Positions 1 to 53,637 of a DNA stretch of 64,000 nt are shown here, in pieces. Each line of letters begins with the position of its first letter. The stretch's first letter is position 1. Source of the DNA: Patescibacteria group bacterium (GTDB lineage Bacteria; Patescibacteriota; Minisyncoccia; RBG-13-40-8-A); NCBI GenBank assembly GCA_043807255.1, contig JAZDGD010000004.1:14057-78056 (forward strand). The letters are read 5' to 3'. The translations under genes and the position numbers were made by a program. A model generated the notes under the pieces. That model was not told the origin of the DNA, ran no database searches, and saw only the letters and a list, made by a program, of their open reading frames with translations.

Positions 1-62
1 AAATCGATTTAGCTGGCGTCCGCGAAGCAATTAAAAAGGCAGTTGAAGATAAAAAGGAATAA
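1..62 (+). CDS. 3' end of an upstream CDS (partial, product unknown; ...IDLAGVREAIKKAVEDKKE*)
   Basis: open frame running into the window start and ending with TAA at 60-62, followed by a hairpin terminator. Confidence 0.3.
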   Translation, partial: IDLAGVREAIKKAVEDKKE

Positions 63-65
63 TAC

Positions 66-105
66 AAAAAGAGCAGAGAAGTGAATTCTCTGCTCTTTAT
101 TTTTA
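66..105 (+). terminator. rho-independent terminator (aagagcagagaa...tctgctctt followed by a T-run)
   Basis: inverted repeat followed by tttatttttatttt. Confidence 0.5.
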
Positions 106-127
106 TTTTGAATATGTTAATATAAAA

Positions 128-203
128 CTATGCCCCGTAGTGAATTTTCCACTACTGCGGAGCAGTAAAATAAAATTAAGTGGAAAATCTACTACAGTGT
201 ATG
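128..203 (+). repeat. about 76-bp leader element; a near-identical copy lies upstream of murD (47021-47096, minus strand)
   Basis: tatgccccgtagtgaattttccactactgcggagcagtaaaataaaattaagtggaaaatctactacag is present in both copies, in the same orientation relative to the downstream gene. Confidence 0.85.
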
Positions 204-1550
204 GACAATTTAGAAGAAATACGAAAAGTTAGAATACAAAAATTAGAAAATTTGAAGAAAGCTGGAATAGATCCTTATCCAGCAAAGGTTTTGCGCACAC
301 ATACAAATACAGAGGCGTTGAATGGTTTTAAAAAAATGGCTGGTAAAACAAACAAAGAGGGAGTTGTTGTTAAGGGCAAGGCAATAACCTTAGTTGGTAG
401 GATTCGTTCAATTCGCGGTCATGGTGGTTCTACTTTTTGTCATATCGAAGATGGTTTTAGTCAAATTCAAATTTATCTAAGAAAAGATATTGTTGGAGAA
501 AAAGAATACGATCTATTTTTAAGTAATTTTGATATAGGAGATTTTATAGAGGTTTCGGGAAAATTATTTTTAACCCAGAAAGGAGAAAAGACATTACAAG
601 TTTTAAATTATAAAATTTTAACTAAATCGCTTTTACCTTTGCCGAGCGAATGGTATGGTTTGGAAAATATTGAAGAAAGATTTAGAAAAAGATACTTAGA
701 TTTAATTCAAAATAAAGAGATTAAAGATAAATTCATAAAACGTGCTGAAATAATCAAGCAAATAAGGCAATTCTTAGAAAAAGATGGCTTTTTGGAAGTA
801 GAAACGCCAATGCTTCAATCAATGGCTGGTGGAGCCAAGGCGAAACCGTTCAAAACACATTTAAATGCATTAGACATGGATTTATACTTAAGGATAGCCC
901 CGGAACTGTATTTAAAAAGATTATTGGTTGGAGGATTTGATAAAGTTTACGAATTGAATAGAAATTTTAGAAACGAAGGCATGGACAGGGAGCACAATCC
1001 AGAATTTACAATGCTAGAATTTTATGCTGCATATTGGAATTATGAAACAATGATGGATTTTACGGAAAAACTATTAAATTCTTTAGATAAAAAGATATTT
1101 AAAACTCCATTTAAACGCGTTGAATACGATAAAATTGTTAAAGGTGAAGATGAAAAAGAATTTTTCAGCAAGATTGTAGAACCGACGTTTGTGATTAATC
1201 ATCCGATTGAAATTTCGCCATTAGCTAAAAAATTAGAAGGTCAAAACCCCGCAGAGCGGGGCAAGGTTGCTCGATTTCAATTAATTGTTAATGGCATAGA
1301 ATTAGCTAACGCATTTTCTGAATTGAACGATCCCATTGACCAAGCGGAAAGGTTTAGGGCGCAAGAAATTGAAAGAAAGGGCGGGGATGAAGAAGCGCAC
1401 CAATATGATAAAGATTTTATTGAGGCATTAGAATATGGCATGCCTCCGGCATCGGGAATCGGTATTGGTATTGATAGGTTGGTGGCATTATTAACCGATT
1501 CTAAGACATTGCGAGAAATAATTTTATTTCCCACAATGAAACCCAAGTAA
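180..1550 (+). CDS. lysS: lysyl-tRNA synthetase, class II; the true start is probably ATG 201 (MDNLEEIRK...), because the GTG-MENLLQ prefix is encoded by the shared leader repeat
   Basis: class II aaRS motifs; anticodon-binding OB fold; ...FSELNDPIDQAERF... and GIGIDRL near the C-terminus. Confidence 0.9.
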   Translation: MENLLQCMDNLEEIRKVRIQKLENLKKAGIDPYPAKVLRTHTNTEALNGFKKMAGKTNKEGVVVKGKAITLVGRIRSIRGHGGSTFCHIEDGFSQIQIYLRKDIVGEKEYDLFLSNFDIGDFIEVSGKLFLTQKGEKTLQVLNYKILTKSLLPLPSEWYGLENIEERFRKRYLDLIQNKEIKDKFIKRAEIIKQIRQFLEKDGFLEVETPMLQSMAGGAKAKPFKTHLNALDMDLYLRIAPELYLKRLLVGGFDKVYELNRNFRNEGMDREHNPEFTMLEFYAAYWNYETMMDFTEKLLNSLDKKIFKTPFKRVEYDKIVKGEDEKEFFSKIVEPTFVINHPIEISPLAKKLEGQNPAERGKVARFQLIVNGIELANAFSELNDPIDQAERFRAQEIERKGGDEEAHQYDKDFIEALEYGMPPASGIGIGIDRLVALLTDSKTLREIILFPTMKPK

Positions 1551-22949: not shown

Positions 22950-23582
22950 ATGGAAAGAAACAAATATCCTGGAAAATTTATTGTCTTTGAAGGATTGGAC
23001 GGCTCTGGGCAATCAACCCAAGCCAAACTTTTACAGAGCCTTGTAAAGAATTGGCCCGCTAATGTTGTGCTCACAAAAGAACCAACGCCCGATTCTGACG
23101 CAGGTAAATTGATCAAAGAAATACTTAGGGGTAAGCAAAAAATGTCTCCGCGAAAATTCCAAAAATTATTTGCGAGAGACAGAGAGATTCATCTGGCGGA
23201 AGTAATTATTCCGCACCTACAACATGGAGATGTTGTCATTTCGGACAGATATTTTTTATCTTCTTTGGCTTTTGGCGCTACGGACGGAGTGGATCTAAAT
23301 TTCCTGATTGATCTAAACGAAAATAAATTAAATCCGGAGCTAATTAAGCCCGATTTGATGTTTTTCTTAGACGTGCGTCCCGAAATAGCAATTTCTAGAA
23401 TCGAGGCCAGAAACAAAGGGAAAGAACATTTCGAAAAACTGGAGAAATTGACGACTGCTCTATCGCACTATAAGTGTTTGATCAGAGATAGATATAATGA
23501 AACCCATGTTGTTGATGGAGAAAAATCAATTCCGGATATTTCTAAGGAAATTCAACATATCGTCGCAGATATGTTGAAATGA
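22950..23582 (+). CDS. tmk: thymidylate kinase
   Basis: FIVFEGLDGSGQST P-loop, DRY motif, lid region. Confidence 0.85.
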   Translation: MERNKYPGKFIVFEGLDGSGQSTQAKLLQSLVKNWPANVVLTKEPTPDSDAGKLIKEILRGKQKMSPRKFQKLFARDREIHLAEVIIPHLQHGDVVISDRYFLSSLAFGATDGVDLNFLIDLNENKLNPELIKPDLMFFLDVRPEIAISRIEARNKGKEHFEKLEKLTTALSHYKCLIRDRYNETHVVDGEKSIPDISKEIQHIVADMLK

Positions 23583-25103: not shown

Positions 25104-27080
25104 TTAGCGGGGTAAAAATCGCTTTATTAATTTTTCGGCCCGAACTAGGTTCTTAACCCAGTTTATTTTTTTGCCTGGATATTTATTAAACCAAGTCATT
25201 TGGCGTTTGGCAAAGTTGATAATTTGTTGCTCTAGTTGTTCGATCATTTGTTCTTTGGTTAAGATTCCCTGCAAGTAACGTGCCACATAGCGATACTCTA
25301 GACCAAAATCATCTAAACGTTTCCAGGTTACGCCTTGTTTGTGTAATTTTTTTATTTCTTCAATCATTCCCGCATTAATGCGTTTAATTAGGCGTGTGTG
25401 AATTAATTTTTTTAATTCGGAAATTGATTTCTTAATTCCAACATATAGAACATTGAAATTAGATTCTGTTGAATTTAATTCTGGCACAGGTTTTCCGGTT
25501 TTGATAACAATTTCTAACGCCCTGATTAATCTTCGGCGATTTTTGGCATCAATATTACTTGCTCGATTTGGATCGAGTTTTTTTAGTTGTTCAAATAATT
25601 TTTCGGTTGTTTTCTTTTCCAGTTCTTTTCTTAGTTTCCAATCCGGCGCTACTTCGGGAATATTTATATTTTCAGTTATTGCTTGAATATAAAATCCTGT
25701 TCCCCCGCAAATAATTGGAGTTTTTTCTTTTTTTAAAATTTTATTTATTGCTTCAAGTGCCAATTTTTTGTATTCGGCAACACTAAATTGTTTTTTTGGA
25801 TTTGCAATATCTAATAAATAATGCGGAACTCCTTGCATTTCTTTTTTCGTGATTTTGCCCGTGCCGATATTCATTCCTTTGTAGATTTGTCGAGAGTCGG
25901 CAGAAACTATCTCGGCTTGCCCTGCTTGCCCCGCTCCTGCGGTGGAGCATGGTCGAAGGGCAATTTGTACGGCTAAATCGGACTTGCCAGAGGCAGTAGG
26001 ACCAAGAACCACAATCAATTTAGACTTCTGGTTTACTAATTTTTCTAAAATCTCCCATCGACGCTTTTTCTCGGCAAGTGGAACATTGTCCTCGAATTTT
26101 GCCGCAACCGTGCCTTGGCGAGTTGAATATTTATTGATATATGCCAAATCGAAATTTACTTCTTTAAATAATTTAATCGTATTTTCAAATTGTTTTTTTG
26201 TTTCTCCCGGGAAACCAACAATAATATCGGTTGTAAATTTCGCTTCGGGGATTTTATTTTTTATTTTTTTAATTAAATTGATATAGTGTTCGCGTGTATA
26301 TTTACGATTCATTTTTTCAAGAATTTTATTATCACCACTTTGTACTGGCAAGTGAATTTCTTTACTGATTTTGGAAGAATTTGCAATTACATCAATTAAT
26401 TCATCAGAAAAATCTTTAGGATGCGAGGTTAAGAATTTGATTGTAAAATTCCCAGGAATATTGTTTATCGTTTTAAGGAGTACAGGAAAAGTAGCCGGAG
26501 AACAGTTCTCCGTAATTACGGAGAACTGTTCTCCGTAGTAACTATTTACGTTCTGTCCGAGCAATACGATTTCTTTATAGCCATCTTTAATTAGTTTCCT
26601 AATTTCTTTTATTATATTTTTTGCTGGTCTCGAGGTCTCTCTTCCGCGAGTATGGGGAACAACACAATAGGTACAAAAATTATTGCACCCAGTCATTATT
26701 GGTACATAAGCGGATTTATGATTGGCCTGTCCGCCGGTGAGGTGGGAATGTTTTGGTTGTAATTCTAAATAGTTTTTCCCCAATAATTCATCTATCGATA
26801 ATACTTCATCAAAGAATTTTAAGAACTTAAGTTTATCGGCCTTAATCACGCATCCAGTTAATATTTTTTTGGCTTTTAGTTTTTTAAATTTTCTGTTTAG
26901 TCCAAAAACCCTATCAATTGCTGATTGTCTTACAGAGCAGGCGACAATCACTATCAAATCAGCCCCTTCTATTGTGGGGGCTGATTTAAATCCAGATTGC
27001 TCTAGATAACTACTTATTCTTTCGGAATCAGATATATTCATCTGACATCCGAAAACTTTTAGATAATACCTTTTCCCCAT
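25104..27080 (-). CDS. miaB-miaA: MiaB-MiaA fusion: tRNA-i6A37 methylthiotransferase (MTTase-N plus radical SAM, no TRAM domain) fused to tRNA dimethylallyltransferase
   Basis: N-terminal half has the MTTase Cys triad and radical-SAM CNNFCTYC; C-terminal half has GPTASGKS P-loop ...SADSRQIYKGMNIGT typical of MiaA; a continuous 658-aa ORF. Confidence 0.75.
   Translation of the reverse strand: MGKRYYLKVFGCQMNISDSERISSYLEQSGFKSAPTIEGADLIVIVACSVRQSAIDRVFGLNRKFKKLKAKKILTGCVIKADKLKFLKFFDEVLSIDELLGKNYLELQPKHSHLTGGQANHKSAYVPIMTGCNNFCTYCVVPHTRGRETSRPAKNIIKEIRKLIKDGYKEIVLLGQNVNSYYGEQFSVITENCSPATFPVLLKTINNIPGNFTIKFLTSHPKDFSDELIDVIANSSKISKEIHLPVQSGDNKILEKMNRKYTREHYINLIKKIKNKIPEAKFTTDIIVGFPGETKKQFENTIKLFKEVNFDLAYINKYSTRQGTVAAKFEDNVPLAEKKRRWEILEKLVNQKSKLIVVLGPTASGKSDLAVQIALRPCSTAGAGQAGQAEIVSADSRQIYKGMNIGTGKITKKEMQGVPHYLLDIANPKKQFSVAEYKKLALEAINKILKKEKTPIICGGTGFYIQAITENINIPEVAPDWKLRKELEKKTTEKLFEQLKKLDPNRASNIDAKNRRRLIRALEIVIKTGKPVPELNSTESNFNVLYVGIKKSISELKKLIHTRLIKRINAGMIEEIKKLHKQGVTWKRLDDFGLEYRYVARYLQGILTKEQMIEQLEQQIINFAKRQMTWFNKYPGKKINWVKNLVRAEKLIKRFLPR
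26506..26545. repeat. 40-bp perfect palindrome cggagaacagttctccgtaattacggagaactgttctccg inside the miaB portion
   Basis: encodes YYGEQFSVITENCSP; 21-23-bp cores (g)tacggagaacagttctccgta(c) are intergenic at 32171-32193, 32912-32934 and 33379-33399. Confidence 0.8.
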
Positions 27081-27118
27081 TTTTCATTCTTGCCCCGTAG
27101 TGAGCGCGTAGCGCCCTA

Positions 27119-28885
27119 CTATGGGGTTAACTCTGTTTTTATTTTTTCGATAAATTTATCAATATCGATATTTTCGATTTCTTTTTTGCCTCGAGATCGA
27201 ATCGCCAATTCATTAGAATTCATTTCTTTGTCTCCAACAACAATAATATAGGGGATTTTTTGCATTTCTGCCTCACGAATTTTCTTGCCCACGGTATCAT
27301 CAGAATCATCAACCTCAACTCTAAAATCATGATCACTGAATTGCTTCTTAATTTTTTGAGCAAATTCTTTGTGAGTTTTAGCAACCGGCAAGATTATAAT
27401 TTGTACTGGTGCCAACCAAAACGGAAACGCTCCAGCATAATGTTCAATTAATGTTCCCACAAATCTTTCCATCGAACCAAGTAGGGTTCTGTGGAGCATA
27501 ATTGGAATATGTTCTTTGCCGTCGGGGCCAATGTAGGTCATGCCAAATCTAGTTGGTAAATTCATATCTAGCTGGATGGTTGTACCTTGCCACTCGCGAC
27601 CCATTGAATCAACCGCCTTAAGATCTATCGATGGTCCATAGAATTTTGCTCCGCCAATATCTTTTTTGTATTCAATCTTTCTGTTTTTTAGAATTTCTTC
27701 AAGAGTTTGTTCGGCGAATTTCCAAATTTTTTCATTTTTAATATATTTTGCTTCTTTGTTTTTAACATCGCGAACAGACAAATAAACATTTAATTTATCA
27801 AATCCGAATGCTTTATTAATTTCAATTGCGAAATCAAAAATCTTATTTACTTCGTCGACAAACTGGTCTTCGGTGCAAATTATGTGCGCATCGTCCTGTG
27901 TAAATCCTCTTACTCTAAGCATGCCGTGTAAGACCCCAGATTCTTCATATCTATAAACGCTTCCCAGTTCGCACCATCTTATTGGTAATTCTTTATAGCT
28001 TCTCGGTTTAGATTTGTAAATTCTGATATGAAACGGACAATTCATTGGTTTTGCGTAATATGCCGCATTCTCAGTTTTGTCTTTTAAAGACATTTGCATT
28101 GGGGGATACATCATTTCTTTAAAGTTTTCTAAATGTCCTGATTTTTCCCACAAATTTGAAAGTCCAACATGTGGAGTATATACGTATTGATATCCATTTT
28201 TTCTGTGCTGTTTTCTCCAGTATAACTCTATTTCTTCTCTAACAATAGAAAGTTTTGGATGCCACAACACAAGTCCCGGTCCAACATAATCATCAATTGA
28301 GAATAAGTCTAAATCCCTGCCAAGTTTGCGATGATCTCGTTTTTCTGCTTCTTCAATTTGTTTTAAATAATTTTCTAATTCTTGTTTTGATTCGAAGGCG
28401 ACTCCATAAATTCTTTGTAACATTTTATTTTTTTCGCTTCCTTTCCAATATGCTCCGGCAATTTTTGTGAGTTTGAATGCTTCGGGATCAATTTCTTTGC
28501 TTGATTTAATGTGTGGGCCCTTGCAAAGATCCGTGAATTCTCCGCTTTTATAAATAGTCACATTTTTGCCATCAAGATCTTTTATAAGTTCAAGCTTATA
28601 GGGTTGGTCTTTAAAAAGTTTCCTTGCTTCTGCCTTAGAAATTAGTTTCTTTTTGAATTCAATGTTTTGTTTAATTATTTCTTTCATTCGAGTTTCAATT
28701 CTTGGTAGATCAGCTTCACTGATCGCAGAGACACGCTGATTATTTGCAAAATCAAAATCATAATAAAACCCATTATCAATTATTGGCCCAATACCAAATT
28801 TAATCTTTTCTCCAAAAAGATCTTTTACTGCATGTGCCATAATATGGCTCAACGAGTGTCGTATTAATTCAATTTGTTTTTCCAT
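27119..28885 (-). CDS. thrS: threonyl-tRNA synthetase; the start is taken at MEKQIELIR..., not the Arg-rich extension listed in the ORF track
   Basis: TGS/second additional domain, class II core, C-terminal anticodon-binding domain. Confidence 0.9.
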   Translation of the reverse strand: MEKQIELIRHSLSHIMAHAVKDLFGEKIKFGIGPIIDNGFYYDFDFANNQRVSAISEADLPRIETRMKEIIKQNIEFKKKLISKAEARKLFKDQPYKLELIKDLDGKNVTIYKSGEFTDLCKGPHIKSSKEIDPEAFKLTKIAGAYWKGSEKNKMLQRIYGVAFESKQELENYLKQIEEAEKRDHRKLGRDLDLFSIDDYVGPGLVLWHPKLSIVREEIELYWRKQHRKNGYQYVYTPHVGLSNLWEKSGHLENFKEMMYPPMQMSLKDKTENAAYYAKPMNCPFHIRIYKSKPRSYKELPIRWCELGSVYRYEESGVLHGMLRVRGFTQDDAHIICTEDQFVDEVNKIFDFAIEINKAFGFDKLNVYLSVRDVKNKEAKYIKNEKIWKFAEQTLEEILKNRKIEYKKDIGGAKFYGPSIDLKAVDSMGREWQGTTIQLDMNLPTRFGMTYIGPDGKEHIPIMLHRTLLGSMERFVGTLIEHYAGAFPFWLAPVQIIILPVAKTHKEFAQKIKKQFSDHDFRVEVDDSDDTVGKKIREAEMQKIPYIIVVGDKEMNSNELAIRSRGKKEIENIDIDKFIEKIKTELTP

Positions 28886-28890
28886 AAATT

Positions 28891-31800
28891 TTATCTTTGA
28901 CTTATTAATTCTTCTGCGTCGTCGCAGAGGATTTTTAATTGATCGTCTTTGTCGGTGAGGCGACCAGTAAGCATGATAATTTTTCCTTCTTGCCAAATTG
29001 TCGGATTTTTTTCTAAGATTGTAGCAAAAACCAATATTTCTACTGTTGCAGTTAAGTCCTCAATTTCCACGAATAACATTGGTTTTCCAGACTTTGTAAT
29101 AAATTTAGTAATTTTTATAATTACTCCCGCAACTTTCACTTTACTATCTTTTTTCTCTTTTATCAAGTCCTTGATCTGAACTGTGCGATGTTTTAAGAAT
29201 TCCTTGTGGTCATTTAGAGGATGATCTGAAATATACATTCCTAAAAGCTCTTTTTCCCACTGAATTTCTTCTTGAAGTAATTTCCTTTTTTCTCCATTAC
29301 TGGTTGCAAAAAGTAATTGATTTTTTTGCGAAATCGGTGCCTCGCCGAATAAACTGGTTTGTCCAAGATTTTTAGTTTTTTTTGATTCCTTAGAAAATTC
29401 TAATAAGTCCTCAATTTTATCAAGCAAATCTTTGCGTGGAGCTAAGGCATCGAATGCACCAGCACGGATTAAACTTTCTAAAGATTTTTTGTTTACAATT
29501 GTTGATTGACCTGCCTTCGGAGATAATCTGGTAAGAAAATCAGCCATTGTCTTGTATGTTCCATTTAATTTTCTTTCTGCAACGATTTCTGCAACTACGT
29601 TGTGTCCAACATTTTTAACCGCTGCCATGCCAAAGCGTATGGCGGATGGAGGAACGAGCGTAAAATTATCAAAGCTTTCATTAACGTCTGGTGGCAAAAC
29701 CTGAATTTTCATTTTTTTGGCCTCATCAACCAAAATATTAATTCGGTCTAAATCTTTTTGGTCCGCCTGCATCAATGCGGTTACAAATTCTGCTGGATAG
29801 TTCGCTTTTAAATATGCGGTTTGATAGGCGATTAAAGCATAACAAGTTGCATGTGAACGATTAAATCCGTATTGAGCAAATGGCTCAATCGAATCCCATA
29901 TTTTTTGCGCGATTGCTTTGTCAATTCCATTTTTAATCATTCCTTCAATCATTCTGTCCGCTTGTTGTTCAAGCAATTTTCTAATTTTCTTTCCCACCGC
30001 CTTTCTTAAAACATCTGCTTCGGACATTGAAAATCCAGCCAAGTCTTTGGCAATCTGCATTAATTGTTCTTGATAAATTGTAATGCCGTAAGTATTTTTT
30101 AAAATTGGTTCAAGCATTGGATGATCGTATCTGATTACTTTTTCACCGTTTTTTCTCGCAACATATTCTGGGATAAGATCCATTGGACCTGGACGATATA
30201 GTGCAACCATGGCAATAATATCTTCTAATTCACTGGGTTTTAATTTCTGTAGATATTTTCTCATTCCCGATGATTCAAGCTGAAAGACCCCGATGGTGTC
30301 TGCTTTTCTCAAAAGGTCAAATGTTTTTTTGTCGTCTAAGGGAATATTTTCAATGTTGATTTTAATTCCTCGTAATTTTTCAATAAGATTTAGGGCCGTT
30401 TCAATTGTGGTTAGGTTTTTAAGTCCCAGAAAATCCATTTTTAAAAGCCCCAATGCTTCGATGGCATGCATTTCATATTGCGAGACAATTGAGTTTTCAT
30501 TTTGTGGCGCAAATTGACGAGGAGTATAAAAGTCCAATGAATTTTTTGTGATCACAATTCCGCAAGCATGAGTTGATGCGTGTCTGGCAACACCTTCAAG
30601 CTTTTTCGCAATATCAAGTAATTTTTTGGCTTGATCGTCTGAATCGTATGCCTGTGAAAGTTCGGGCACTTTTTCTATTGCGTCTTTTAAAGAAAACCCA
30701 AAGGGAATCATTTTTGAAAGTTGGTCACAAAAAGCATAGGGATAACCTAGCGCCCTGCCAGCGTCACGAATTGCAGCACGCGCAGCCATTGTTCCAAAGG
30801 TTATAATTTGAGCAACGTGGTCGGCTCCGTATTTTTTCGTTACATAGGCAACAACCTCATCACGTCGGACATCAGCAAAGTCCAAATCAATATCAGGCAT
30901 ACTAATTCTTTCGGGATTTAAAAATCTTTCAAAAAGTAATTTGTATTTTAATGGGTCAACATTAGTAATGTTTAACAGATAAGAAACAATTGAACCAGCT
31001 GCTGAACCACGACCCGGACCAACAACAATGCCATTATTTTTTGCCCAATTAACAACATCTTGAACAATTAAAAAATAGGAAGCAAAACCAGTTTTTTTAA
31101 TTACACCTAATTCGTAGTTCAATTGTTTTTTTGCCTGTTCAGAATTTTCCCCAAAGTCTCTTTTGGTCATTCCTTGTTCGCATAATTCTTTTAAATATCC
31201 ATCAGCGGTTTGGTCGTCGGGAAGAGGGAAGTGGGGAAGTTCGGTTTTGTCGAGTTCCAATTTCACGTCGCACATATCTGCAATTTTTTGAGTATTGGTA
31301 ATTGCTTCAGGAACATTTCTGAATGCTCGAATCATTTCATCGGGCGATTTTAAAGAATAATCTTCATTCATCATATTCATTCTATCTTTTTCATCAACAG
31401 TTCTCACTGTTTGTACGCAAAGTAAAACATCATGAACTTCTGCATCTTCTTTGTTTAAATAATGAGTATCGTTTGTAGCAACTAATGGTAAGTTTGTTTC
31501 TTTGGCTAATTGAATTAATTTCTCGTTTATTCTTACTTGTTCTAAGTCGTTGGGATGATCCATAATTTCCAAATAAAAATGATCTTTACCAAAAAGTTTA
31601 GAATATTCCAGGGCGATTTTTTTTGCTTTTGCTAAATCATCGGAAGCTAACGCAGAAGGAACCTCGCCTTGTGGACAGGCACTTAAAGCAATCAATCCTT
31701 CGTGATATTCTCTTAAAACCTCCCAATCAATACGCGGTTTATAATAAAATCCTTCAAGGTATGATTTGGTTACCAATTTAATTAAATTATGATAGCCGGT

Positions 31801-32091: not shown

Positions 32092-32125
32092 GTAATGATT
32101 TTAGCATTTTTAAAAAAGAAATGAA

Positions 32126-40214: not shown

Positions 40215-40480
40215 GGATAGTACATAATCATTAATTAAATTTTTATGTAAAAGAGCGATAACAATAAGCGTACTTTAAAACAGAGTTTAGTTTTGGAACG
40301 TAGTTCAAAAATTGAGCTCTGTTTTTTAATCAGAAAAACATGTACACAATATTCTAATATGTTTTTATGTAATTTACAGTAGTTTGTGTGAGTTTGTTAG
40401 ATCAAATCGAATCTTTTATGGTTATCCTGATACAATCAGAAGTAGGCAGGCCGTTTCGGCCAATCTACTTCTGAATCTTT

Positions 40481-41940
40481 ATTGAGAGTTTGATCCTAGC
40501 TCAGGACGAACGCTGGCGGCGTGGATTAGGCATGCAAGTCGAATGGGTTTAGACCCATGGCGAACGAGTTAGTAAGACGTAGGTACATCCCTCTGACTCG
40601 GACATAACTTGCCGAAAGGCAAGATAATTTCCGATGGTCTCGAAAGAGTAAAGTCTTATCGCAAGATAAGATGGTGAGAGAGTGGCCTGCGCCCTATCAG
40701 CTAGTTGGTGAGGTAATGGCTCACCAAGGCTATGACGGGTAGGGGGCGTGAGAGCGTGTTCCCCAACGATGGCACTGAGATACGGGCCCTACTCCTACGG
40801 GAGGCTGCAGTCGAGAATCTTCCACAATGGACGAAAGTCTGATGGAGCGACGCCGCGTGAATGAAGAAGTCCTTCGGGATGTAAAGTTCTTTTCTAGAGG
40901 AGCAATTTTTGAGTGTACTCTAGGAATAAGGGGTTGCTAAACTCGTGCCAGCAGCAGCGGTAATACGAGTACCCCAAGCGTTGTCCGGAATTACTGGGCG
41001 TAAAGCGTCTGTAGGGTGTTTGATACGTCTTCTGTTAAATTTCGATGCTCAACATCGGAGCTGCAGGGGAAACGGTCAGACTAGAGAGTGTGAGAGGCTG
41101 ATGGAACTTAAGGAGTAGGGGTGAAATCCGTTGATACCTTAGGGAATACCAAAGGCGAAGGCATTTGGCTGGTGCATTTCTGACCCTGAGAGACGAAAGC
41201 GTGGGGAGCAAAAAGGATTAGATACCCTTGTAGTCCACGCCCTAAACTATGAATACTAGTTGTCTGAAGTATCGACCCTTCAGGTGACGAAGCTAACGCG
41301 TTAAGTATTCCGCCTGGGAAGTACGGTCGCAAGACTAAAACTCAAAGGAATAGACGGGAGCTTGCACAAGCGGTGGAGCGTCTGGTTTAATTCGACGGTA
41401 AGCGAAGAACCTTACCAGGGTTTGAAATTCTAGTGAAAACCTGATGAAAGTCGGGTCTTCTACAAGGACACTAGAACAGGTGCTGCATGGTTGTCGTCAG
41501 CTTGTGGCGTGAGTTGCTCCGTTAATTCGGGTAACAAGCGCAACCCCTGTCGTCTGTTATAAGTGTCAGACGAGACTGCCTCGTGATACGAGGAGGAAGG
41601 TAGGGATGACGCCAAATCAGCATGGCCCTTTGATACCCTGGGCAACACAGGCGCTACAATGGCCGAGACAATGGGTCGCCAAATCGTAAGATGGAGCCAA
41701 TCCCATCAAACTCGGTCCCAGTTCGGATTGGGGTCTGCAATTCGACCCCATGAAGTTGGAATCGCTAGTAATCGCAGATCAGCTACGCTGCGGTGAATAC
41801 GTTCTCAAGCTTTGTACTCACCGCCTGTCACACCAGAGAAGCCGGGAGTACCTGACGTGCCACGATTCGTGGTCCTAAGGTAAATTCGGTGACTAGGGTG
41901 AAGTCATAACAAGGCATCCGTAGGGGAACCTGTGGATGGA
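40481..41940 (+). rRNA. rrs: 16S rRNA (about 1460 nt); the gene ends ...GGGGAACCTGTGGATGGA and the canonical 3' tail GATCACCTCCTTA is not present
   Basis: AGAGTTTGATCCTAGCTCAG at the 5' end; universal blocks (GTGCCAGCAGCAGCGGTAATAC, GCATGGTTGTCGTCAGC, GTCATAACAAGG...); leader and trailer complementarity (TTATCCTG / CAGGATAA) brackets the mature gene. Confidence 0.9.
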
Positions 41941-42186
41941 CAATATTTTTACTTAGTTGATAAAATTTCTAGGTAAAGTCGATTATCTTGCATTGCAGGA
42001 TAAAGCAAAAAAGTTTTTTAATTGTTTGTACTAAACAAACAGTAAGTATCGGGAGAACCATAAAAGATTTGATAATAAAAAAACGAGATTTAATCTCGTT
42101 TTTTTATTATATGCTTGCGTTTATTATTATTTTAGCTGTATAATATAAATAGTATTTTGATAATAATTAATAGTGAATAAAATATT

Positions 42187-42450: not shown

Positions 42451-42524
42451 GGGCGTATAGCTCAGTTGGCTAGAGCGCGTCACTGATAATGACGAGGTCC
42501 ATGGTTCGAGTCCATGTACGCCCA
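42451..42524 (+). tRNA. tRNA-Ile (anticodon GAU); CCA not encoded
   Basis: gggcgta...ctGATaa...ggttcgagtcc...tacgccca cloverleaf. Confidence 0.85.
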
Positions 42525-42532
42525 TTTTTATC

Positions 42533-42603
42533 GGGCCTGTAGCTTAGTGGTAGAGCTCCCGATTTGCATTCGGGGGACGGGAGTTCGATTCTCCCCAGGT
42601 CCA
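42533..42603 (+). tRNA. tRNA-Ala (anticodon UGC) with the G3:U70 identity pair; CCA not encoded
   Basis: gggcctg...ttTGCat...gagttcgattctc...caggtcca. Confidence 0.85.
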
Positions 42604-45685: not shown

Positions 45686-47023
45686 CTATTTCTTTACGTA
45701 TTTTACGAATTGATCACTGCGGTCGTATTCATTTTTGAAAACACCAAACGATGCTGCGCCGGGAGACAATAAAATAATGTCTCCTTTTTTTGTAAATTTT
45801 CTCGCTTCTTTAATCGCTAATTGCATTGAGTCAACGACAATATATTCGGGAAAATCTTTAGGCAAAACGCTTAAAATCTTATCAGTCGCTGTGCCTTTTA
45901 TGAATACAACATTTTTAGTTGTGTTTGTTGTGACTTCTAACATGTCGTTGAAGTTTAATTCTTTATTTGCCCCTCCACAAATTAAAACAATATTTTTCTT
46001 GTTTTTATATAAAGAATTTAGTGCGGCAATACAGGCGTCAGGAGTTGTGGCATTAGAATCGTTATAATAAGTAATTCCGTTCTTCTTTAAAATCATTTGT
46101 AATCGTCCAGGTTCGCCAGGATAGGTAGCAATTGCTTGTTTGATTTGTTTTTGATTTAATTTCATTAATTTTAAAACTTCAACAGCTAAGGCAATGTTTG
46201 TCTTGTTGTGTTCGCCAATTAATTTTGTTTTGAAATTTCTAATTGTATCTTCATTAACAACAATAATCTTGGGATTTATCCCGCCTTGGCGGGACCTCTT
46301 TTTTATTTGCACCATCGCTTGTTCACTGATAATTAAAAAATCATTTTCTGTTTGGTATTTAAAAATTTCCGCCTTGTCATCAAAATATCTTTGCATATCA
46401 TTTTTATAATAATTCATATGATCATTCATAAAGGTTGTGAAAACAGCAATGTGTGGACTGATTTTTGATTCACCAAAACCTTGTAATTGCCAAGAGTCGA
46501 GCTCCAAGACAACGACATCGTTATCCTTAACTTTTTCCAGCAAAGGAAGCGTGGCAAGTCCACGAATATTTCCACCCAAAAATACATTTCCTTTTTTATA
46601 ATATTTTTTTAAACCATGATAAATCATTTTTGTGACCGTTGATTTTCCGCGCGTGCCAGTGATGCCAATAATTTTAGCTTTAGTAAATTTGGTAAACAGA
46701 GAAGCATCCATTTCAATGGGAATGCTGTTTTTTCTTGCTTCTGCCAGATAAATAGAATCAAAGGGAACTCCTGCGGCTTTAATCAATGTGTCGGCCTGTT
46801 GAAAATCTTCAATGCGATGCTGGCCTAAAATATATTTTATGTTTTTAAATTTTTTGAGTTGTTTTAGAGAAGAAGCAAGTTGTTGTTCGGTTTTTAAATC
46901 AGTAATTAAAAGATTGGCATCGTGTTTGGCCAAAAATTTCGCAACATTAATTCCTCGGCCAAGTAGCCCAAGTCCCATGATGATGATTTTTTTGTTTTTG
47001 AAATATTCTTTGTAATTAAGCAT
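45686..47023 (-). CDS. murD: UDP-N-acetylmuramoylalanine--D-glutamate ligase; the start is probably ATG 47023 (MLNYKEYF...), because the MENLLQG prefix in the ORF track lies in the shared leader repeat
   Basis: IIIMGLGLLGRG, GITGTRGKSTVT P-loop, Mur ligase domains. Confidence 0.85.
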   Translation of the reverse strand: MLNYKEYFKNKKIIIMGLGLLGRGINVAKFLAKHDANLLITDLKTEQQLASSLKQLKKFKNIKYILGQHRIEDFQQADTLIKAAGVPFDSIYLAEARKNSIPIEMDASLFTKFTKAKIIGITGTRGKSTVTKMIYHGLKKYYKKGNVFLGGNIRGLATLPLLEKVKDNDVVVLELDSWQLQGFGESKISPHIAVFTTFMNDHMNYYKNDMQRYFDDKAEIFKYQTENDFLIISEQAMVQIKKRSRQGGINPKIIVVNEDTIRNFKTKLIGEHNKTNIALAVEVLKLMKLNQKQIKQAIATYPGEPGRLQMILKKNGITYYNDSNATTPDACIAALNSLYKNKKNIVLICGGANKELNFNDMLEVTTNTTKNVVFIKGTATDKILSVLPKDFPEYIVVDSMQLAIKEARKFTKKGDIILLSPGAASFGVFKNEYDRSDQFVKYVKK

Positions 47024-47096
47024 ACCCTGTAGTAGATTTTCCACTTATTTTTATTTTACTGCTCCGCAGTAGTGGAAAATTCACTACGGGGCATAT
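47021..47096 (-). repeat. leader element copy 2 (see 128-203)
   Basis: the reverse complement matches the lysS leader over about 76 bp. Confidence 0.85.
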
Positions 47097-47220
47097 TTAA
47101 TTCTATCATTATAATATTTTTTAGACAAAATCCCGATGTAGGGTCGGGATAAAAAAAAGAGGGGAGACGCAACAACGATTGTTCGTTGTTTTGTCTCCCC
47201 ACGCTCCGGCCGTTCGTTAT

Positions 47221-49987: not shown

Positions 49988-50636
49988 TGAATATGTTTCG
50001 ACATCAAGTAAAAAAAACAATAAAAGAAAAAGCATTTTTTATCGAGTAAAAAAGGTTAAAAATAAAAGCAATTAAAGTCTAAGTAGTAATGTCTATAAAT
50101 TGCCAGCTAAATTAAGCAGGTTAGTAAGGGTATATGGTGGATGCCTTGACACTAGAAGGCGAAGAAGGACGTGGCGTAACTGCGATAAGTCTCGGGGAGG
50201 TGTGTAGCAACCTATGATCCGGGAATCTCCGAATGAGGAAACTCAATTCCAATAAACTGGAATTATCCCGATTGAAATCGGGAAGCGAACTCGGCGAAGT
50301 AAAACATTTCAGTAGCCGAAGGAATAGAAAACAAAAGTAATTCCCCAAGTAGTGGCGAGCGAAAAGGGAACAGCCCAAACCCGATCCTAGAACCGCTTTG
50401 CGGTTCGGATTTAGGGGGTAGTAAGATAATAACGTCGAGAGAAATCTCGGGAAAGTGGATACAAAACTAAGACTTCCTTAGTTGAAGGAACTGGAAAGTT
50501 CTACCAAAGAAGGTAATAGTCCTGTAAACGAAAAGCCTATTATACTACTATTATTGAATATTGAGTACCGCGATAACATATAATCTAGCGGGAATCATCC
50601 TGAACTATCTAGGAAAGGCTAAATACTTCTAGTGAT

Positions 50637-50675
<39 letters not shown>

Positions 50676-52732
50676 GCCCGATAAGGGCGTTGAAATAGTA
50701 CCTGAAATCATATACTTACAAAGAGTCGGAGTCCGACCCGCAAGGGGTTAGGATGACGGCGTGCTTTTTGCAGAACGAACCAACGAGTTTACCGCAGACT
50801 GTTGTCTAAGTCCGTATAGGACGGAGGCATAGGGAAACCGAGTGTTAATAGCGCGAAATTATAACAGTATGCGTAAGACCCGAAGCCAGGTGAGCTACCC
50901 ATGGCCAGGATGAACTCTGATGAAAATCAGAGGGAGGTCCGGACCCACCAGCCGTGCAATACTGGGGGATGAGTTGTGGGTTGGAGTGAAAAGCTAATCG
51001 AACCTGGTAATAGCTGGTTCTCCTCGAAATATGTTTAGGCATAGCCTCTTGTTTTTTCTCCTTAGGGGTAGAGCACTAAATTGGTTGAGGTGGCGCAAGC
51101 CTACTCACTAAATTAAACTCCGAATACTAAGGCAGATAGCAAGGGAGTAAGACTGTGGGGGCTAAGCTCCATGGTCAAAAGGGAAATAGCCCAGATCGTC
51201 GTCTAAGGTCCCAAAACTAAATTAAGTGGTAAAAGAAGTGTTTCGTCTTTGACAGATGGGATGTTGGCTTAGAAGTAGCCATCATTTAAAGAGTGTGTAA
51301 CAACTCACCATTCTATTCTCGATTTATCGAGAGCTATGACAAGACGCGCTGAAAATGTAACGGGGCTCAAATTTAGTACCGAAGACACGGATTTTCAAAT
51401 TAATTTTTGAAAGTGGTAGAGGAGCATTTTTTCAACAGTGAAGCTAATTCGTGAGAGTTGGTGGAGTTGAAAGAAGAGAGAATGTTGGTATGAGTAACCG
51501 CAAGTCCGATGAGAAATCGGACCATCGAAAGCCCGAGGTTTCCTTGGCAATGTAAATCAGCCAAGGGTTAGGCGGATCTAAGGCAATCCCGAAAGGGGTA
51601 GCTGATGTTCAATCGGTTAATATTCCGATCCTTCTGTATTTTTCTATGGAGTGACGGAGTTTAGTAGTTAGAGCAGATTATTGGATTTCTGTTTATATAT
51701 TAAGAAGCCAGATTAGGCAAATCCGGTCTGGAATACTTCAAGATACGTATAAAGGTTCAACTTCGGTTGGATTTATTCTAATGAGCAAGCTTCCAAGAAA
51801 AACTTCTATGGTTAGAAATATAGAATCCGTACTTAAACTGACACAGGTGGGCGAGGCGAGGAGCCTAAGATGAACGGGTTAACCTTCGTTAAGGAACTCG
51901 GCAAAACAACGGCCGTAAGTTCGCAATAAGGCCTTCCCCGACCCGCAAGGGATTAGGGGACGCAGCTAAAGATTCCTAGCGACTGTTTACTAAAAACACA
52001 GGTCCCTGCTAACTCGTAAGAGGATGTATAGGGGCTGACACTTGACCAGTGCTGGAAGGTTAATAGTGGGGGTGTATGTCTCGCTTTGCGAGATGTATGC
52101 TCACTGCTTGAAGCCCCAGTGAACGTCGGCGATAACTATAATCGTCCTAAGGTACCGAAATTCCTTGGCATGTAAGTTATGTCCTGCAGGAAAAGTGTAA
52201 CGACTGGGAAACTGTCTCAACGAAGAGCCCGGTGAAAATGCAATGTCAGTGAAGATGCTGACTACCCGCGACAAGACGAAAAGACCCCAGGAGCTTTACT
52301 ATATCTTGGTATTGTTTTAATGATTTTAATGCGTAGCGTAGACGGTAGGATTTGAAGGTTGCCTCTCGGGGCGACTGGATCCGACAATGAAACACCGTTC
52401 TTTGAAATTGTTAAAACTAACCCCTTCTATATGAAGAGGAACAGTGCCAGGTGGGTAGTTTTGGTGGGGCGCTAGCCTCCTAAAGAGTAACGGAGGCGTT
52501 TAAAGGTTGACTAGCTCCGGATGGAAATCGGAGCGATAGTGTAAGAGCAAAAGTCAGCTTTACTGCAAGACTGACAGGTCGCGCAGTTACGAAAGTAGAA
52601 TCTAGTGAACCGACCCTGGTTAATAGAATCGGGGGAGATCATCGGATAAAAGCTACCCTGGGGATAACAGGCTGGTAGACGCTAAGAGTCCATATCGACG
52701 CGTCTGTTCGGCACCTCGATGTCGGCTCATCT

Positions 52733-52763
<31 letters not shown>

Positions 52764-52784
52764 TGGCTGTTCGCCAATTAAAGA

Positions 52785-52824
<40 letters not shown>

Positions 52825-52872
52825 ACTCCTATCTGTCGTGGGCGTAGATACTTGAGAGACTTTGTCCCTAGT

Positions 52873-53637
52873 AAGAATATTGCTACTGTCCGAAGTAATT
52901 CGGACTGACAATGTGGCTTATAACGGTGAAGTCTTAATGATGTTTGGTCTGTTGATAACTATTATTGCATCGGTCCGATGATAATGGTACAATTTAATTG
53001 AGGACCAGATAATTATTAAGATAATACCGTGGGAAGTCGATCTAAAATTAATTACGCATATATTGCAGGATTTCTTGATGGTGATGGAAGTTTAATGTTT
53101 CAAATTAAAAAACGGAAAGATGGTAAGTCTAAAACAAGATTTATGCTGACAATCTGTTTTTATCAAGATTCGAGACACGCTAAGCCATTGTTCTGGATTC
53201 AAAAGGTTCTGAAAATAGGTTATATTTCAAAACGTAAAGATGGAATTACAGAATTAAGAATAAATGGTTATAAGCAAGTCAAAAATATTTTGAAAAATTT
53301 AATTCCATTCATCAAATTCAAGAAAATTCAAGCAAAAGCAATGTATGACGCCACAAATCTTTTATGTGCTGTGAAAAATATAAATTTGTCTAAAAGCAAT
53401 TTATATAAGTTAATTAATTATATTTTGACAATTCAAAATAATAATTATGCGACTAAACACAAAAAAACTAAAAAAGATTTGTTGAAAATTTTAGGTTTGA
53501 CCCCGTAACGACTTGGTTTGACTTCGGTCAGCCAGAGTTTAACAGCAATGTTAAGCTAACATGCCACCACCCTAATTCCGATATTATTGGAATGGGTGAA
53601 GATATAGTCTGCGCACATAGTGATATGTGATAACGTG
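52873..53637 (+). mobile_element. self-splicing (probably group I) intron in 23S carrying a homing-endonuclease ORF; the insertion lies within the sarcin-ricin loop sequence context
   Basis: exon 1 ends in U, the intron ends in G; flanking exon sequence reconstitutes CCUAGUACGAGAGGACC. Confidence 0.65.
53029..53508 (+). CDS. LAGLIDADG homing endonuclease (single-motif, homodimer type)
   Basis: YIAGFLDGDGSLMFQIKK motif; located inside the 23S intron. Confidence 0.8.
   Translation: MGSRSKINYAYIAGFLDGDGSLMFQIKKRKDGKSKTRFMLTICFYQDSRHAKPLFWIQKVLKIGYISKRKDGITELRINGYKQVKNILKNLIPFIKFKKIQAKAMYDATNLLCAVKNINLSKSNLYKLINYILTIQNNNYATKHKKTKKDLLKILGLTP

Follow-up and report, generated by a model that had tools for sequence, protein, structure and literature searches.

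The genes lysS and murD lie on opposite strands of a 64-kb stretch of a Patescibacteria metagenome-assembled genome (36% G+C), hereafter called the window, and a nearly identical sequence precedes both of them. The initial annotation had described this sequence as a shared leader of about 76 bp. The repeat itself is real: an ungapped alignment of positions 129-203 (+) with 47095-47021 (-) gave 73 identities over 75 bp, and the two mismatches fall on the positions written W and K in the earlier consensus. A 33-mer and a 20-mer taken from the element were found at two sites each in the window (up to 3 mismatches), where shuffled sequences are expected to give 0.00 to 0.01. Searching the window with a hidden Markov model (HMM) of the arms returned the four arms of the two full copies as the only matches at E<0.01. 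The repeated unit is a 67-bp core (133-199; 47091-47025) with TATG on either side. Thus, the start codon is a piece of the flanking duplication, not of a leader. Both copies terminate precisely at the ATG of lysS (201) and of murD (47023). Database entries identical to the two products (P0121 and P0001) have the lengths of the ATG-started proteins, 449 and 445 residues, respectively. The longer open reading frames (ORFs) with an upstream GTG start (VENLLQ.M...), reported earlier for both genes, are artefacts of reading into the element.

The same genes in relatives were compared next to this arrangement, murD in L001-L008 (MurD 82-92% identical) and lysS in L009-L013 (LysS 81-88% identical). 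The element was absent upstream of murD in all of L001-L008, where the sequence reads TGaTAGAAT/TGATAGGAT/TGATAATAT, 6 nt, ATG. It was also absent upstream of lysS in all of L009-L013, where a -10 box is followed by 5 to 8 nt and ATGGA. In the window, the murD upstream region reads TGaTAGAAT taaa TATG (67 bp) TATG CTT... Similarly, lysS of L009 carries a single TATG, as against TATG (67 bp) TATG in the window. Empty orthologous sites at murD (L001-L008) and at lysS (L009-L013) are the presence/absence pattern of a miniature inverted-repeat transposable element (MITE). Since the sites of the relatives are empty and TATG now stands on both sides of the core, the window lineage has made two independent gains. 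The layout of murD and lysS in the relatives is that of leaderless genes, in which the extended -10 box is predicted to put the transcription start on the start codon. Thus, the comparison shows that the element was inserted twice independently, each time on the start-codon TATG of a leaderless housekeeping gene.

Relatives of the element are widespread. The exact 22-mer GTAGTGAATTTTCCACTACTGC was absent from the genome and metagenome collections, and matches were obtained only with the degenerate arm pattern CCCYGTAGTRRATTTTNNACT, which was derived from the four arms. In species-representative genomes, this pattern was found at 44 loci, about 34 of them with paired arms, and all of the paired ones belong to Patescibacteria (Parcubacteria/Paceibacteria, Nealsonbacteria, Saccharibacteria, Wolfebacteria, and Wildermuthbacteria). 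About 10 single, unpaired hits, mostly outside Patescibacteria, fit the chance expectation for the information content of the pattern. In metagenomes, more than 120 loci among the matches listed carry the pattern, and the totals used below (166 pairs, 138 elements, and 137 elements with flanks) include these loci. Viral contigs contained neither the arm pattern nor relatives of the GIY-YIG ORF discussed later. The element family is confined to Patescibacteria. No description of it was found in the literature searched, and it is apparently undescribed so far.

Pairing of arms within 3.5 kb gave 166 pairs, which reduce to 138 unique elements of 44 to 316 bp (mostly 60 to 83 and 131 to 139 bp) on more than 120 contigs. 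Three of the 166 pairs are neighbouring elements rather than single units. A 3148-bp "element" (L048, L133, L176) was discarded as a transposon, since it consists of two small elements that lie on either side of pth and mfd. The consensus arms are about 21 bp long, the left one being CCCYGTAGTGAATTTTnnACT and the right one, read inward, CCCYGTAGTAGATTTTnnACT. One arm is always GTAGTGAATTTT and its partner always GTAGTAGATTTT. As a result of this fixed asymmetry, positions 10 and 11 are conserved as a G.T pair (130/138) and an A/C mismatch (132/138), respectively. Within the 20 to 21 nt of the arms, at least 130 of the 138 copies keep complementarity at positions 1-3, 5-9, 12-16, and 19-20. Positions 17-18 vary, yet they stay complementary in 129 to 130 of 138, a covariation that is expected from two transposon ends anyway.

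An exact 4-bp repeat flanks 97 of the 137 elements (chance p about 1e-160), and many of the remaining ones have a 5-bp flank repeat, e.g., TATGA or TCAAA. With reverse complements pooled, the flank spectrum comprises TTGA/TCAA (28), TATG/CATA (27), CAAG/CTTG (11), TATA (9), and CAAA (5). A diverged copy with TTGA on both sides occurs in the relative L002 beside TTGACA-16-TATAAT. Terminal inverted repeats, a short direct target duplication, and small, non-coding copies dispersed over unrelated loci are all found here, as in MITEs. What was taken for a 76-bp leader of lysS and murD is, with high probability, a MITE-like non-autonomous mobile element with a 67-bp core, inverted arms of about 21 bp, and a 4-bp target duplication. 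The shared placement ahead of lysS and murD is a coincidence of insertion sites, and there is no lysS-murD regulon.

The copies are not randomly placed. In about 28 of 31 cases, a flank of the TATG/CATA type coincides with the start codon of a long ORF, and many of these cases have TATAAT 6 to 8 nt upstream. As a background, 23.5% of the non-coding TATG sites in the same loci are start codons (p=5e-15 for the enrichment; 2e-10 with a conservative count of independent sites). The genes that follow TATG-flanked insertions are unrelated and include those for L10 and S12, ftsA-like, hrcA-like, and phosphomannomutase-like genes, lysS, and murD. Among the TTGA/TCAA flanks, TTGAC is present in 25 of 28, and TAnnnT follows 16 to 18 nt downstream in 24 of 28. 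Both occur jointly in 23 of these 28 sites, compared with 8% of intergenic TTGA sites (p=4e-21). A few copies are located within terminator loops, e.g., in L057. Thus, the family inserts non-randomly at gene start codons (TATG) and at the upstream edge of -35 boxes (TTGA). Many additional copies at random locations had been named beforehand as the sign of a generic repeat; the many copies were found, and the randomness was not.

Two subfamilies divide these targets. The loop of subfamily A is a small GC hairpin followed by AT-rich AAGATAATTTTTAATT. All of its copies sit on an ATG in one orientation, with TATG, occasionally CATG on one or both sides, as the flank, and they precede at least 17 unrelated genes. 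The copies of the window, L119, and L144 form a CCACT variant of this subfamily. The loop of subfamily B is a GC hairpin followed by a T-rich run, which makes it terminator-like, and its TTGA flank lies on a -35 box. In about 10 of 11 independent TTGA sites, this loop (hairpin, then AT-rich run) faces the promoter, also in copies with a reversed arm asymmetry (L053, L146, L149). Both subfamilies occur on the 315-kb contig Ga0315284_10000011, subfamily B at L099 5390-5465 (TTGA, -35 box) and subfamily A at L112 1672-1742 (TATG/CATG, start codon). Therefore, a single enzyme with a single preference fails to explain the pattern. The subfamily-specific flank may be an inherited flank, a result of selection on loop content, or a survival bias.

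The initial annotation had favored a regulatory leader that couples an aminoacyl-tRNA synthetase to a cell-wall ligase through two alternative pairings of the start-codon region. In this form, lysS and murD would be co-regulated by a riboswitch-like RNA or a protein operator. The RNA structure lends it some appeal. In the dominant predicted fold of the two copies (-28.8 and -36.6 kcal/mol; z = -5.7 and -8.4), both AUGs are buried in a strong and strand-plausible hairpin, and the placement ahead of both genes is the same. The GTAGTG/CACTAC hairpin noted earlier also exists. It amounts to -8 to -14 kcal/mol over the first 30 to 45 nt and is an early, weaker fold of the 5′ arm that could form first during transcription. 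The dominant fold is instead a single long, imperfect hairpin between the 5′ and 3′ arms. In the lysS copy, the GGG-to-GTG change weakens the base of the stem (-24.8 versus -32.0 kcal/mol). Against a common regulatory function, the element is missing from the lysS and murD leaders of every relative examined. With Rfam 15 at gathering thresholds, no hit was obtained in the window or in seven family loci, and nothing relevant appeared at E≤10 for window positions 60-330. Furthermore, copies of the element, with duplicated flanks, also precede many unrelated genes or lie on -35 boxes and within terminator loops. Arm positions 10-11 are kept non-Watson-Crick, which selection for an RNA helix does not predict. 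A shared regulatory leader is therefore highly improbable. The other option raised at the start, a small mobile promoter cassette, fares better in its mobile part, given the inverted arms, the 4-bp duplications, the more than 130 dispersed copies, and the empty sites. A cassette of promoter or terminator kept for its signals would agree with the subfamily A copies with TGACT arms, which hold TTGACT, 17 nt, and TAATTT aimed at the gene, and with the subfamily B loops that face the downstream promoter. The window variant, however, has TTCCAC in place of TTGACT. Its best internal match, TTCCAC-18-TAAAAT, is weak compared with the TTGACT-17-TAATTT of many subfamily A copies, and a consensus promoter scan of window positions 1-400 returned no full -35/-10 pair or promoter-like site. 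Besides, the host -10 boxes are still in place upstream, and the orthologous genes of the relatives are expressed without the element. We consider retention as such a cassette improbable, and the promoter role is unsupported.

How lysS and murD may be expressed with the element in place can be pictured from the surrounding signals. Since the insertion left the host -10 box intact, the first (duplicated) ATG is probably still the point where transcription begins. In copy 1, ATG 130-132 would then be the probable 5′ end of the transcript, and the mRNA would begin AUG CCC CGU..., opening a 12-codon ORF (MPRSEFSTTAEQ*) that ends in the loop of the element. This upstream ORF is out of frame with lysS and, in copy 2, with murD; 71 nt separate the first AUG from the true one, which is located at the hairpin base. 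The corresponding MPRSEF... ORF arises in all subfamily A copies and stops inside the element, with the exceptions of L119, L122, and L124. The L119 ORF continues in frame into the host protein, and those of L122 and L124 extend beyond the host ATG in another frame. The duplicated ATG of L122 is now served by a GGAGG box.

Features of the translation apparatus bear on this scheme. The 3′ end of the 16S rRNA reads GGATGGACAATATTTT, and the CCTCC anti-Shine-Dalgarno (CCUCC) is not present in it. Among 51 crude gene calls, 17 have a -10-like box 4 to 9 nt before the ATG, and only 5 have a Shine-Dalgarno-like sequence. In our preferred model, ribosomes would load on the 5′-terminal AUG, open the hairpin as they translate the mini-ORF, and start again at the second AUG. 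With a 16S rRNA that lacks CCUCC, loading and re-initiation would be the most likely route to LysS and MurD. Alternatively, cleavage of the stem by RNase III, a gene for which is present in the relatives, or a weak internal promoter could serve. Two further ways to restore a leaderless transcript were rejected. For an outward promoter borne by the element, the hexamers next to the flank (TCTACT/CTACTA) lack the key A at position 2, and for a self-cleaving ribozyme, no ribozyme family matched. Most promoter-proximal genes in the window look leaderless. The 16S 3′ end at 41920-41951 is GGGGAACCTGTGGATGGACAATATTTT, yet GGAGG-like boxes are found before a few genes, e.g., at 22950 and 43197.

Among the 166 arm pairs and the GIY-YIG loci, the sole protein found between arms is an ORF of 88 residues with a GIY-YIG nuclease domain. 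The coding unit is 316 bp long. In L038, L178, and L185, the ORF starts about 5 nt past the AG-type arm and stops at the GTGA-type arm, and the arm variants of these units change jointly at both ends. The protein matches Pfam GIY-YIG PF01541 above the cut-off (E=1.3e-16 to 1.7e-17) and PDB 1ZG2 weakly (E=0.004). NCBIfam grpIintron_endo scored 17 bits against a cut-off of 56. The 88-residue protein has 973 homologues at E≤1e-5, and the best 120 of the 973 are 72-90% identical. In these best 120, the motif columns Y, Y.G.T, R, EHN, and YYE are at least 90-97% conserved. Such numbers of homologues and such conservation across hosts suggest a selfish gene. A tblastn search of the first set of loci with this ORF returned only itself. 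On the strength of the arm-bounded units, we suggest with slightly better than even confidence that the 88-residue nuclease is the mobilizing enzyme and acts in trans. A broader proposal is more tentative and in our judgement falls somewhat short of an even chance. Here, the arms would define a new class of prokaryotic transposon whose autonomous form of about 316 bp encodes just the 88-residue GIY-YIG nuclease. Its derivatives would home to the -35 hexamer and to the +1/start codon of leaderless genes, each subfamily with its own 4-bp flank.

Several observations from these loci stand apart. The L038 element (794-1109) lies about 10 codons into a 282-residue ORF, and the ATG that opens the longest ORF is now one within the element end, so that the element supplies a new N-terminus. 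In L178, arm-like sequences at 1449-1470, 1947-1969, and 2268-2289 lie over the 5′ ends of consecutive pilin-like genes and translate as a prepilin leader (..KNLLLG|MTLVE, ..QKFTTG|FTLVE), as if arms had been recruited as coding sequence. Distant GIY-YIG ORFs in L141 (1059-1325), L067 (4879-5172), and L131 (7750-8019) lie beside tRNA-like sequences and have no recognisable arms. They may be another kind of GIY-YIG insertion.

Other enzymes have to be weighed as the source of mobility. A conventional DDE transposase encoded elsewhere, for instance, an IS1380/piggyBac-like one, could move the MITEs, and the GIY-YIG ORF would then be a passenger or a secondary invader of the loop. Inverted arms with 4- to 5-bp target duplications are the hallmark of DDE cut-and-paste elements, the MITE loops are unrelated to the GIY-YIG ORF, and strand transfer by GIY-YIG enzymes is not known. 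However, no DDE transposase gene was found inside any of the 166 arm pairs, which come from about 0.85 Mb of element-bearing loci; what the long pairs contain are the housekeeping genes pth and mfd. Moreover, the GIY-YIG ORF is tightly bounded by arms in four independent contexts, in fixed orientation and with co-varying arm variants. We rate the DDE explanation as rather unlikely. Single-strand hairpin elements of the REP/RAYT or IS200/IS605 kind present another possibility, in which a tetranucleotide target is base-paired and the "duplication" is the target copy plus a copy borne by the element. The whole element is one hairpin, and each subfamily keeps its flanking 4-mer and orientation even within one contig (L099 versus L112), as such elements would. 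Yet no Y1 (HUH) transposase or TnpB was seen between or beside the arms, in loci that were not exhaustively scanned with a Y1 profile. The ends are inverted copies of one another rather than distinct subterminal hairpins, and both sides carry identical flanks in 97 of 137 elements. Duplicated flanks and inverted ends set the family apart from IS200/IS605 and REP/RAYT, and a single-strand mechanism is very unlikely.

Our interpretation has points against it as well. The start-codon and -35 enrichments were scored against sequence occurrence and therefore mix the choice of target with the survival of tolerated insertions. The window shows just two full copies and one relic, and no GIY-YIG ORF was found within its 64 kb. 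What is said here of the transcription start, of translation of the upstream ORF, and of re-initiation is predicted from the sequence. In global alignments, the MITE loops showed no homology to the GIY-YIG ORF, and only the arms are shared; an origin of the loops by deletion from that ORF was rejected on this basis. Two of five close GIY-YIG homologues in the fetched loci have no recognisable arms. GIY-YIG enzymes are hydrolytic nucleases, and we know of no member that carries out transposition with target duplications or strand transfer.

The relic in the window is a 34-bp mini-palindrome (Table 1). It lies 12 nt upstream of the ATG at 27080 (gene 25104-27080, minus strand) and overlaps the end of the gene 27119-28996. 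A 13-nt exact match to the elements (TGCCCCGTAGTGA) and a pair of weak inverted hits of the arm HMM mark it, and no flank duplication was found at 27093-27126. It is probably an internally deleted derivative of the same family, judging by its arm remnants.

Table 1. Coordinates of the element copies, neighbouring signals and genes in the window, and of GIY-YIG units in other loci
Feature	Position	Strand	Remarks
Extended -10 box TGtTAATAT of lysS (predicted promoter)	115..123	+	6 nt upstream of first ATG; relatives TGaTAATAT + 6 nt + ATG
Left flanking TATG, copy 1	129..132	+	Direct repeat of 200-203; empty site of L009 has a single TATG
12-codon upstream ORF MPRSEFSTTAEQ*, copy 1	130..168	+	Opened by duplicated ATG; stops 32 nt before ATG 201
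Element copy 1, 67-bp core CCCCGTAGTG...CTACTACAGTG	133..199	+	Near-identity with copy 2; site empty in L009-L013
Left arm, copy 1, GTGA-type, CCCCGTAGTGAATTTTCCACT	133..153	+	Arm HMM E=2.9e-5; arm conserved across the family
Loop, copy 1 (subfamily A)	154..178	+	Small hairpin ACTGC-GGA-GCAGT, then A-rich stretch
Right arm, copy 1, AG-type, AGTGGAAAATCTACTACAGTG	179..199	+	One G-to-T change (GGG to GTG)
Right flanking TATG, copy 1	200..203	+	ATG 201-203 is the lysS start codon
lysS coding sequence, 449 aa	201..1550	+	100% identical to P0121, lysine--tRNA ligase
Mini-palindrome, 34 bp, CCCCGTAGTGAGCGCGTAGCGCCCTACTATGGGG	27093..27126		Outer 11-12 nt of both element arms only
murD coding sequence, 445 aa	45686..47023	-	100% identical to P0001
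Downstream flanking TATG, copy 2	47021..47024	-	ATG 47023-47021 is the murD start codon
Element copy 2, 67-bp core	47025..47091	-	Site empty in relatives L001-L008
12-codon upstream ORF MPRSEFSTTAEQ*, copy 2	47056..47094	-	Read from sequence
Upstream flanking TATG, copy 2	47092..47095	-	Contains ATG 47094-47092
Extended -10 box TGaTAGAAT of murD	47100..47108	-	5 nt upstream of first ATG; L001, L002: TGaTAGAAT + 6 nt + ATG
GIY-YIG unit	L038 794-1109		Flank TTCT; same arms
GIY-YIG unit	L178 1975-2289		Flank TTTA; arms CCCAGTAGT...
GIY-YIG unit	L185 1387-1702		Flank TGG; arms CCCGGTAAGT...
Distant GIY-YIG ORF	L080		TTGA flank on TTGACA-17-TAAATT; 10-bp arms CCCTGCACCT/AGGTGCAGGG

The window holds further features of note. 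Its rRNA genes are unlinked: the 16S gene (40478-41951) and two tRNA genes (42451-42603) are followed by about 7.5 kb of protein genes and then by the 23S gene (50114-52868), whose match spans 2755 nt of a 2925-nt model. The gap between 16S and 23S holds murD and, next to it, a gene that corresponds to a Mur ligase gene in relatives. An ORF at 53029-53508, between the 23S and 5S genes, contains ...YIAGFLDGDGSL..., which resembles a LAGLIDADG homing-endonuclease motif. Other short intergenic palindromic repeats are also present, namely, ACCCGAGGTCAGACCTCGGGT, CTTACGAGGTTTAACCTCGTAAG, TTCGGAGGTGGAACCTCCGAA, and TGTCTCC..CGTACGGCCGTG..GGGAGACA. The positions of these repeats are 10804, 32131, 32872, 36152, and 49403; 4766, 36175, 42928, and 43917; 10542 and 49311; and 32201, 32942, 33401, and 45648. 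They may be terminators or further repeat families. A 115-bp direct repeat lies at 32125 and 32866, 741 bp apart.

For annotation, our analysis removes a false lead, i.e., a lysS-murD regulon and GTG-extended ORFs. Genomes of Patescibacteria are tiny, tightly packed, and thought to be poor in repetitive DNA; yet a mobile family persists across the radiation. It does so by landing on the few nucleotides where an insertion spares both the promoter and the reading frame. In addition, leaderless essential genes that gain a structured leader of 70 nt and a 5′-terminal mini-ORF offer a natural experiment on initiation free of Shine-Dalgarno sequences. If the proposed class holds true, no smaller autonomous DNA transposon would be known, and a GIY-YIG enzyme would for the first time be seen to drive one. 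Should the GIY-YIG link be correct, it would add a new enzyme class to transposition and offer a very small, possibly programmable insertion system.

Bacterial MITEs include the Correia elements of Neisseria (CREE/NEMIS), RUP, and ERIC (reviewed in PMC2229807). They are short (about 60-150 bp), non-coding, and multicopy, with hairpin-forming terminal inverted repeats and short target duplications, and the present family resembles them in all of these respects. As in Correia-type MITEs, the copies often lie next to genes and alter 5′ untranslated regions. The duplicated target differs: it is 4-5 bp of TATG, TTGA, TATA, or CAAG here and TA in those elements. Unlike Correia, RUP, and ERIC, the present family is restricted to Patescibacteria and sits exactly on start codons and -35 boxes. 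Furthermore, no insertion-sequence-type transposase partner was found for it in the loci analyzed here, and its sole coding relative is the GIY-YIG nuclease. Correia hairpins in mRNAs are substrates of RNase III. By analogy, cleavage by this enzyme is a plausible fate of the present hairpin too.

Elements of the IS1380 family and the eukaryotic piggyBac elements make 4-5-bp or TTAA duplications and have ends beginning with CC or CCC. The family shares with them the 4-5-bp flank duplication, the CCC ends, and a fixed short target word per lineage. In contrast, it has no DDE transposase between its arms, and its arm sequence is not known to be related to their ends. Rickettsia palindromic elements are small palindromic mobile elements of reduced genomes that are inserted in frame inside coding regions. 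Like them, the present elements persist in places where a host gene is transcribed, and sometimes translated, together with the element (L119; L038, where the element donates a start codon). Unlike them, the typical copy here sits on the start codon, carries a stop, and leaves the host protein unchanged.

The 88-residue protein shares the GIY-YIG catalytic domain with stand-alone proteins of the UPF0213/YhbQ type (PDB 1ZG2, BH0048) and with homing endonucleases of the I-TevI type. It differs from the GIY-YIG homing endonucleases in that it consists of the catalytic domain only, without a DNA-binding extension, and is encoded outside introns and inteins. In contrast to homing endonuclease genes, the GIY-YIG units occupy unrelated sites and are built like transposons, with inverted arms of about 21 bp and short flanking repeats.

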